The position numbers are program-made. From positions 416,001 through 480,000 of the forward strand of contig CAWFXL010000001.1 in NCBI GenBank assembly GCA_963819815.1: a stretch of DNA of 64,000 bases, written 5' to 3'. Position 1 is the first letter of the stretch. Each line of letters begins with the position of its first letter. This stretch comes from an uncultured bacterium. GTDB lineage: Bacteria; Babelota; Babeliae; Babelales; Babelaceae. Below, piece by piece: positions 15,001 through 18,000 of the stretch.

Positions 15001-18000
15001 GTATCGGAACGTTCAATTGTTCGCTAAGCTGCCGAGCAAACTCATTTCGTTGAGTTTGTGCCGTGACACCTTCGACTGGCGCCAAGCCGGTAAATTTGTA
15101 AAAAGTATTATTTTTTGCAAATTCTTCCACCATGCGGCTTTTGCCAATCCTACGTCTCCCCTTAATAACCAAGAGACTCGCGGTCTTTTTAGAGAGAAAA
15201 GGCCTCAATTGGGCTAGTTCTGCCTTGCGGCCAATAAATTTATTCGATTCATTCGACATAACGAAACCATTTGTTCACAAAAATAGGAAAATCTATTATT
15301 ATGAATCGAATATACGCTTTATCTTTATTCACGTCAATAAAATTTTTTAGTTTGGTGAACAATTCTTTTGATTTTTGGTAAGGACTCCGTAACTAATATT
15401 GGTTCGACAGCACTACATATTGCAGCAGTCCTGAATCACAGGGTGTGATTCCTCGAATCGATATATACGTAAAAACAATTATTTTCTTGAGACTTAGTTC
15501 GTGATCAAGCTTATTGGCCATATACTATCAAATACGGAACTTTCAAAAATGTCATGATGACCCACGCAAATACTAATGATGGCACTGTTCTTATCCAGCG
15601 AACACAACTTGTTTCCGTCAAAGATTCAGACGTAGGGCAGATTATTAAGACTATACTACAACATCAATTAGGTGGGGTAACATGAATGAATCGACCAAAA
15701 AAAACAGATTAACTCGTGTCATAACTGTGGCTACCTATCAAAATCAATCCCCATTGTTTTAGCTATGTGTAAAAACAACCTCCTAATAAAGCTTTTCGTA
15801 GAGTTTCTATCCGTTACTTGCTATGTTATTTGACAATATCAGCACATCTGCTAATATTATTACTAATAGAATAATAACATTAATCAATCTGGTGGCACCT
15901 TTTCTTATTATACGAGGATCATATCATGAAAAAAAGCATATTTTTTATTGGCATTCTTATAGGAAGCATATCCTGTGAAGCTATGGATGTTGTCAGCGTA
16001 CCTGATGCCAGTTCAAAGACCGTTACTCTTCTGGCGGGTACCCATCAAGACCCTATAAAGATATCAGTTCGTCACGCAAAACAACTTATAGGAATATGTG
16101 ATCTACTTACGTACTCTGATTCAGAAGAAGATATCCCTGTTCCCGTTGTCGCTAAAAATATACTTGAAGCGATTTGTGCGCAGCTTGAGCGCATTGCTCT
16201 GTATGGGGAAGGGCGGGATAAAAAACTGATTGACGCGATATATGATGATTTTAAGAAGCTCGATGATGATACCCTTATCGAAGTGTTACGAGCGGCTGAT
16301 TATTTAAATGTCGTTATCTTATTGAATGCTGCATTCTCTATTGCCAAAGAACGCTCACTCGAAAAAGCTTCACTTGAAAACCTTTCATCTTTACATATTC
16401 GTATTTCGAGACTTCTACTTGAGTATAGGATAGCTGCCATGCTTGGCGTTACTCACGAGCGAGGGAATTATTATTCTCAACAAGATCTAAGTAAGGTACC
16501 TGTGGTAACTCCATTAACTACCTACAATTGTCGTACTGGCGGAATTGAATGTGTTGCCGTCACGCATGACGATAAGATCATTTTTGGTTCTGATGGTATG
16601 GTACGGATTGTAGATAGGGCTGGCACGGAACTTGCCGCGTGGCGCCTTGAGGAACAGGTTACGGTCATATGTGTAACTCCTGATAATAAAATAGTTACTG
16701 GTTCATCCAATGGAATAATCCGAATCTGGGATATGGCTGGTAATCAGCTTGCGCAATGTGAAGGACACCAGCAGCATATCAAGTCGCTTTTTATTACTCC
16801 TGACCTTAAGATAGTTTCTAGTGCAGGTGATTATACGGTGCGCATCTGGGACATGTTTGGTAGAGAAATCGCCGTATGTGCTAATTCTTTTATTGCAGCT
16901 TTAACATCAGATAATAAAATTGTTACTGGTGAAATGTTGACCGGAACGATGAGGATCTTTGATATATCTGGTAACCAACTTGCACAATGGCAGGGACATC
17001 AAGATCAAATTTGGTCGTTGACCGTTACAAATGATAATAAGATAGTTTCAGGCTCTAAAGATACAACAATATGTGTATGGGACACTTCTGGTAACCGACT
17101 TGCAGAGTGTAAAGGTCATGAAGGTGGAGTTACAACATTATTCGTGACAGCAGATCATAAGATTGTTTCCGGTTCTGAAGATACAACTGTACGTATTTGG
17201 GATAGTACTGGTAACCAACTTGCTGTATGCAAAGGTCATGAAAGTCCTGTCACTGCAGTGCAAGCAACGTCCGAGGGGCGAATAGTATCCAGTTCATCCG
17301 ATTTTTCAGTACGAATCTGGGATATTAAAGGCAAACAGATAGGGCTCTGTAGAGGGCATACTGAAGCAGTTCAGAAACTATGCCTAGCCGCTGATGATTC
17401 TATCATCTCTGCCTCATATGATAGAACTTTGATCATTTGGGATATGCAGAAAGTTTTGTTGCTTTTACAGATTGCATCAATTACTCATGACCAAGCCACC
17501 GCTATCTGGGCTTTGCTGCAAAAATGGGCTTCCCCTGATGCGGATAAACAGAGCTATGTGAATATGATAGTAGAAGTTATTACTGGCAAGCAACATAGCG
17601 AGTTTCAGCCAGAAGCACAAGAAAGTTCAACGACTTGTTCAACATCCTCCATTCACTAGGTGAACTATGCAATTCCCAGTCTACGAATTGAAATTATTAA
17701 ATAATAATTACACTATTGCGTCCATGCTTGAAAAGATTAGATACATCGGCTTCTCACGTTAATACCATAAAGAGAATCCGTTGTCTTATTTGTAAAATCA
17801 GATTTCACTTCTTAAGGAAGGTTAGCCTTTTTCAATGCATGCCTAAGAAATGCGCTTGAATTTATTGCATAGCAAGTATACGATACTGCTTACTGAAATA
17901 AACTATGGTTAATTAAAAGACCGACTCTTTTATGAAAGGTATCTATCACTATTATATGAGTTACAGACAAGTTCAACACAATTCGCTAGCCTGTCCATTA

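Follow-up and report, generated by a model that had tools for sequence, protein, structure and literature searches.

Putatively exported Babelota proteins with a Skp1-derived domain fused to receptor repeats: candidate one-chain receptors for host cullin-1

Results

A putatively exported protein with a Skp1-like domain and a WD40 propeller

The window, the whole 64,000-nucleotide stretch of contig CAWFXL010000001.1 analysed here, encodes at 15926-17659 (+) the 577-residue protein g0394. The survey's finding had described this ORF as a signal peptide, a Skp1 domain and WD40 repeats, an architecture borne out by the ORF itself, Pfam WD40 matches and a structure model. Labels of this type are the survey's, and coordinates were assigned to them by order and architecture. 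A Sec-type signal peptide spans approximately residues 1-19 (15926-15982, +; sequence and a crude hydrophobicity rule). It is followed by a Skp1-derived core of three strands and the helices up to Skp1 helix 6 (residues 31-143; 16016-16354, +; profiles, model and fold searches) and, at the place of the Skp1 tail, by a two-helix linker box (residues 144-172; 16355-16441, +; model and motif alignments). Eight repeats then form the WD40 propeller (16499-17443, +; Pfam WD40, model and repeats by eye), and a C-terminal helical module common to the Skp1-WD40 subgroup lies at 17447-17584 (+; model and own-genome search). The roughly 140 residues between leader and repeats receive no Pfam name in a Pfam scan.

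In the model of the mature protein (residues 20-577; pLDDT 87, pTM 0.82) seven blades are ordered, one short repeat is disordered and three helices follow at the C-terminus. Repeat 4 (residues 311-347, about 16856-16966) is some 10 residues short and modelled poorly. Within this genome the C-terminal helical module occurs only in the four Skp1-WD40 proteins, and it may pack back onto the linker box. A fold search with full-length g0394 returned propellers only and does not inform the domain arrangement.

Related copies in the same genome

A 224-domain profile matched seven proteins of this genome at E<=1.2e-9: g0394, g0075, g0580 (two copies), g0406, g0410, g0435 and g0377. Eight Skp1-domain proteins had been counted before; these seven stand, while g0403 is weak (E 0.0014). 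One giant Sel1-repeat protein scores 0.001, and the best reversed-ORF control 0.018. In the window, g0403 (27770-28609, +) combines a signal peptide, the weak Skp1-like domain (Pfam E 0.029) and a helical part. g0406 (30361-32415, -; jackhmmer, Pfam and the 224-domain profile) has a Skp1-like domain with an insertion, followed by WD40 repeats, and probably starts at the methionine at residue 40. g0410 (43470-44381, -; Pfam and the 224-domain profile) has a signal peptide, a Skp1-like domain and an unnamed C-terminal part and is, as previously noted, over the Pfam Skp1_POZ cut-off, the only protein of this genome to be so. In g0377 (L003:982-2355; C1 408981-410357) the Skp1-like part is fused to an M48 peptidase with an intact HExxH.

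Giant Sel1-repeat proteins with divergent Skp1-like N-termini lie at 2371-6237 (+; Pfam and hhalign) and 35172-39869 (-; Pfam, the match at E 0.001 and hhalign). They belong to one family of five, in which Sel1 repeats were confirmed by Pfam for these two. The N-termini of the group match a eukaryotic Skp1 profile with an hhalign probability of 87% (P 3.9e-6), a reversed control against the bacterial profile giving 0.7%, in keeping with the survey's description of a divergent Skp1 version; they read x-M-E-L where Skp1 has N-Y-L-D.

Other genes of the window include a 481-residue ORF (13814-15259, -) that lacks a signal peptide, has a Walker-A-like motif and adjoins g0394 amid exported repeat proteins, and an exported-looking MsrA-MsrB fusion (26282-27475, +; Pfam PMSR and SelR). 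The leaders of two tandem ORFs at 45734-48815 (-) are nearly identical; Pfam identifies the first ORF as a WD40 protein, and neither ORF has a Skp1-like score.

The N-terminal domain is of Skp1 type

A jackhmmer search with residues 21-200 of g0394 against the 2540 ORFs of its own genome, in which no Skp1 model was used, converged on only four proteins, g0394 and three paralogs, with five domains. Against the PDB, the resulting profile gave 37 sequence matches at E<=10, of which the top 33 were all Skp1 (best 9.3e-6) and none was a BTB protein or Elongin C. Because seeding from g0394 alone still ranks Skp1 first, the feared circularity of choosing relatives with a Skp1 model is removed. The five-domain profile has matches in 22 of the 261 genomes of the phylum, and a 56-row alignment was built from these loci (56 of 59 candidates, with 4 dropped and g0406 added). 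Its profile matched human Skp1 over residues 3-138 (E 2.4e-23), with Elongin C reaching no better than 4.8e-11 and the best BTB protein 0.089; it aligns with Skp1 up to position 124 and with Elongin C only up to about 98-102.

An AlphaFold2 model of residues 31-177 (pLDDT 93, pTM 0.87) derives from the same 56-row alignment and is thus partly dependent on the profile. All 44 Foldseek matches listed for it were chains of Skp1-containing entries. In a wider fold search Skp1 ranked top (Z 13.2, rmsd 3.7, 112 aligned; then 12.6 and 12.4), with Elongin C at Z 10.6 (rmsd 2.0, 88 aligned), the best BTB protein at Z 9.9 (rmsd 4.3, 124 aligned) and other BTB proteins below. The model has a helix after the core, H100-113, that is absent from Elongin C, and begins at the core strand, without the BTB dimerisation extension. 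A language-model search with the single g0394 sequence placed SKP1 clusters in 21 of 30 matches (score 0.91).

At E<=1, Pfam PF03931 matched 33 of the 56 members, g0394 not among them, and Pfam BTB matched 2. At E<=1e-4 the BTB family had no match in this genome, where the survey too had seen nothing over the cut-off, and matches in 3 of 261 genomes of the phylum. g0410 scores 16.6 bits against Pfam BTB, below the cut-off of 20.5, and its single-sequence PDB search reached Skp1 only at E 0.22. Profile E-values, fold ranking and the Pfam BTB nulls rule out BTB or Elongin C as the identity of the family. Altogether, the g0394-seeded profile, the 56-row profile, the fold and the language model agree in supporting an N-terminal domain of Skp1 type, nearer to Skp1 than to Elongin C or BTB, as had been proposed.

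In trees of 110 columns, 51 of 52 free-Skp1 domains separate from all bacterial domains (support 0.56). The tree of an 86-row subset needs two changes, with g0410, on a long branch among eukaryotic Skp1, and the free Skp1 P0105 on the "wrong" sides. One origin of the bacterial domains is possible, and the trees point to no particular donor. In each of the two trees P0105, a free Skp1 of 183 residues whose tail is complete, falls among the bacterial domains; it comes from short contigs only.

The fusions are widespread and carry receptor-type repeats

The 56-row profile, with up to 15 candidates scored in each genome, has at least 328 matches in 71 of the 261 genomes of the phylum, across 10 of its 21 families, and Pfam Skp1_POZ is over its cut-off in 41 of 261, with none in 14 controls. 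The spread is larger than first reported (14 of 41 genomes). Several genomes hold tandem arrays of the fusion genes, and these reach at least 15 copies. Among 1.84 billion representatives, the best 150 matches were sorted by eye into 109 bacterial-type fusions, 40 free or eukaryote-type Skp1 proteins and one set aside.

In 57 bacterial-type proteins, chosen mostly without obvious WD40 motifs, Pfam named as partners 28 LRR, 12 WD40/propeller and 4 ankyrin domains and one each of RCC1, Lcl_C and zinc finger, leaving 10 with no named partner. These partner domains are those of F-box and BTB receptors. A set of 31 genome-derived proteins covered this range too, with the M48 peptidase of g0377 in addition. 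Two or three Skp1-like copies are present in 19 of 169 proteins, and some proteins have no recognisable receptor domain. Partners are unusual in P0068, where three weak Skp1-like domains accompany C2H2 zinc fingers, and in P0125 and P0167, which have Lcl C-terminal domains. The source names are mostly "hypothetical protein" or those of the repeats, with 1 of 23 rows automatically named Skp1.

A pattern scan of a genome collection gave 57 matches, of which 14 were confirmed, at 10 loci, nine named Ca. Babeliales and one "bacterium", a weak hint that the domain is restricted to the phylum. An insensitive one-pattern scan of viral contigs yielded 59 pattern matches, none confirmed.

In one LRR array (genome G198: L031:217-708, L042, L010 and L047) strand B3 is Elongin C-like. 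The profile of this subgroup gives Elongin C (E 3e-4) and yeast Skp1 (4.4e-4) similar scores, and the subgroup nests among Skp1-type LRR members in the 86-row tree. These sequences could reflect a switch of cullin, or chance.

A missing tail and selectively kept motifs

PF01466, the Skp1 tail family, had no match in the 261 genomes of the phylum, nor in the controls. A local eukaryotic tail profile matched 33 of 39 eukaryote-type proteins, a count that includes the sequences it was trained on; among the bacterial-type set it matched no fusion, its single match being P0105, a free Skp1. The Skp1-like domain of the fusions is thus truncated and lacks helices 7-8. The oxygen-dependent glycan of protist Skp1 is attached where helix 8 begins (PMC12101541), so the fusions have no such glycosylation site. 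Skp1 itself is described as essentially stand-alone (PMC1257465). Because the tail and the stand-alone state were tested for and are absent, the fusions fall outside the Skp1 family, though they are SCF-receptor-like by anatomy.

In addition to PxPN, we take an S-x-T-[IL]-K-x-x-x-E-D helix and [ND]-Y-L-D to lie on the cullin face, as in the Skp1-Cul1 structure. Skp1 touches Cul1 through PxPN on strand B3 and holds the F-box through helices 7-8 (PMC1257465). Presumed cullin-face positions are kept at a mean of 7.3 of 11 in 192 bacterial domains against 8.5 of 11 in 52 free-Skp1 domains, and other conserved Skp1 positions at 1.6 of 12 against 8.65 of 12, both sets having been picked after the column table was seen and PxPN alone being literature-based. 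The PxPN residues are conserved at 60% (P), 56% (P) and 39% (N) in the bacterial domains, against 77, 60 and 71% in the free ones.

g0394 keeps 5 of the 11 presumed cullin-face positions, with no S-x-T, PVPV for PxPN and LH for LP. g0075 and g0410 keep 6 each, g0406 5 and g0435 4; g0377 and the second g0580 copy keep none, values that misalignment may depress. Judged by these motifs, the copies of this genome (0-6 of 11) are among the most eroded of the family, and some of the proteins may no longer dock on a cullin. Because of this erosion and the loss of N-Y-L-D in the Sel1 group, not all the proteins listed earlier need dock on one.

A linker box with a possible F-box connection

The family motif of the linker box is E-x-L-x-x-L-P-x-[END]-[IL], in which g0394 has L-H for L-P. 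Of 192 domains, 51 have the pattern [LFI]-P-x-[EDN]-[LIV] at this place, most of them in WD40 members, compared with 1.9% of shuffles; LP stands at the aligned position in 51 of 82 WD40-type domains against 2 of 34 LRR-type ones. A box profile, its rows pre-selected for [LFI]-P, aligned in register with helix 1 of Babelota F-boxes (hhalign probability 11%, P 0.0028) and scored above all 60 column shuffles. Its search of the PDB listed no F-box among 10 matches, and PF12937 had no match in this genome at E<=0.01; neither search found a complete F-box after the core. In the WD40 members the box is suggestively F-box-helix-like, and descent from an F-box is a lead. The linker-box helices also align structurally with BTB 3-box regions, up to model residue 146 (KBTBD2, KLHL22, SPOP, A55 and KEAP1; Z 8.8-9.9, rmsd 2.9-4.3).

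Ordinary F-box genes are present in 40 of 261 genomes of the phylum, with none in this one, and 15 genomes, by hand count, hold both F-box and Skp1-like families. One genome, G024 (L147), has at least 25 F-box-like and 11 Skp1-like matches. Babela is described as using F-box proteins (PMC4378268).

Export and selection

Of 168 family proteins whose 5' end is intact, 135 passed a crude signal-peptide rule, compared with 1 of 36 eukaryote-type proteins and 11 of 83 Walker-A ORFs of this genome. Signal-peptide-like starts are common in this genome, where 423 of 820 long ORFs pass. Over cut-off, the genome has four secretin and two T2SSE matches. One secretin match is split across two frames, one part with an internal TGA (C1:22164-22663, -); the three further secretins lie within C1:1178086-1185459. 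A vacuole membrane is not crossed by type II secretion alone. Type II secretion is reported for the phylum (PMC4378268, PMC4776705), all Babelota isolates are said to infect protists (PMC12172432), and Babela grows inside a vacuole (PMC4378268), a point against delivery to the host cytosol.

dN/dS was 0.35-0.38 in two arrays (45 and 10 pairs), in both domain and repeats, showing that these arrays are under purifying selection, with no sign that the repeats evolve faster. Between paralogs of the two arrays the repeat domains are 55-72% identical.

Discussion

Babelota encode proteins in which a signal-peptide-like leader precedes an N-terminal domain derived from eukaryotic Skp1 and cut after helix 6, with WD40, LRR, ankyrin or RCC1 repeats joined to it. 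These fusions have multiplied in tandem arrays under purifying selection. From this anatomy, the family probably consists of exported one-chain substrate receptors for the host cullin-1 ligase. The fusion protein would leave the cell by the Sec pathway and type II secretion and reach the host cytosol, where its core would take the Skp1 site on cullin-1, assisted in WD40 members by the F-box-helix-like box, and its repeats would offer a host protein for ubiquitination. Tail loss would make an F-box partner unneeded and remove the proline of the oxygen-responsive protist glycosylation. Of the survey's one-chain replacement for Skp1 plus F-box, the domain, fusions and spread hold, with the refinements that the domain is tail-less, that the copies of this genome are eroded against a family mean of 7.3 of 11, and that the Sel1 group has no N-Y-L-D. 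Applied to g0394 itself, with its eroded motifs, the reading is nearly balanced, tipping slightly against. A fuller scenario is conceivable but doubtful: an ancestral Babelota would have fused a protist Skp1 core to the first F-box helix and deleted their mutual clamp, giving hundreds of receptors that bypass host Skp1 and its oxygen-dependent glycosylation control. Cullin-1 would then share the one-chain architecture that descriptions have so far confined to cullin-3, and a compact module for engineered protein degraders would be at hand.

An M48 peptidase or a giant Sel1 partner fits a substrate receptor poorly, and the intact HExxH of the former also suits a domain that has lost cullin binding and works as a structural, oligomerisation or export module fronting many effectors. 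Motif erosion in this genome's copies and the Sel1 group and the tandem domains in 19 of 169 proteins point the same way, and tail-less Skp1 can homodimerise through helices 5-6 (PMC12101541). A purely structural role would not lead one to expect the family-wide pattern, in which polar motifs of the presumed cullin face are kept and other conserved Skp1 positions lost, and we regard a non-binding module as unlikely. Proteins in which the domain is present two or three times, and those whose partner is unnamed (10 of 57), would also suit decoys that bind cullin-1 and block host SCF assembly, or that use it as a mere anchor, with no target degraded. In most members, however, the repeats vary from paralog to paralog (55-72% identity in two arrays), and one decoy would suffice, yet arrays reach at least 15 copies; we consider such decoys decidedly unlikely.

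The domain could also dock on another cullin, on Cul2/5 in the manner of Elongin C or on Cul3 in the manner of BTB plus 3-box. The two post-core helices do align with 3-box regions to model residue 146, and in one LRR subgroup Elongin C (3e-4) and yeast Skp1 (4.4e-4) score alike, but that subgroup is nested among Skp1-type members, the family profile prefers Skp1 over Elongin C by 12 orders of magnitude, and the model, starting at the core strand, has no BTB dimerisation extension. Docking on a cullin other than cullin-1 thus seems very improbable.

If the cullin-1 receptor reading is true, Skp1 replacement would be a third route by which pathogens enter host ligases, beside F-box mimics for SCF and BTB fusions for cullin-3. 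More than a quarter of the genomes in this little-studied phylum of protist parasites have the family; many hypothetical proteins would gain a testable function and a pointer to host targets. It would provide a natural setting in which to test whether an adaptor and a receptor fused in one chain can work with cullin-1. Tethering targets to SKP1 suffices for degradation in human cells (PMC10614948). A literature search, covering few subscription journals, turned up no description of Skp1 fusions in bacteria. BTB, POZ and Skp1 appear at most in a reference in the Babela, TM6 and Chromulinavorax papers, and nine Babela supplementary files and TM6 file 2 contain no Skp1, BTB or POZ.

Legionella AnkB and the Orientia Anks are reportedly bacterial F-box effectors. 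For them and the Babela F-box proteins, as for the fusions, the proposed result is that host SCF is turned on new targets; such effectors borrow host Skp1, whereas the Babelota fusions would replace it. Eukaryotic Skp1 (PF03931 plus PF01466), the SCF adaptor, has in common with the fusions the fold, the S-x-T-I-K and A-A-N-Y-L-D-I motifs and, in part, PxPN; the fusions differ in having repeats, a signal peptide and many copies per genome, and in lacking helices 7-8, with their F-box clamp and glycosylated proline. The BTB-LRR effectors of chlamydiae (Protochlamydia PEX1) and the F-box families of Neochlamydia likewise come from amoeba-associated bacteria and are tandem-expanded, with a ligase-docking domain and repeats, but their domains are by description BTB (Cul3 type) or F-box and their secretion type III (PMC4209131), in contrast to the Skp1-derived domains and Sec-type leaders seen here. 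Cul3 adaptors of the BTB-3-box-Kelch type also unite an adaptor, a two-helix box and a propeller in one chain, a design called unique to Cul3 in the text consulted (PMC3597819). Our model aligns with them at Z 8-10, but the Babelota sequence is Skp1-type, unlike that of these adaptors and of viral BTB proteins. Finally, a chlorovirus, likewise a protist/algal parasite, has its own Skp1, A039L, described as a separate chain that binds separate F-box-like partners, the ankyrin proteins A682L and A607R (PMC7019647), whereas in Babelota adaptor and receptor share one chain. Skp1-named proteins also exist in giant viruses, according to a database listing.
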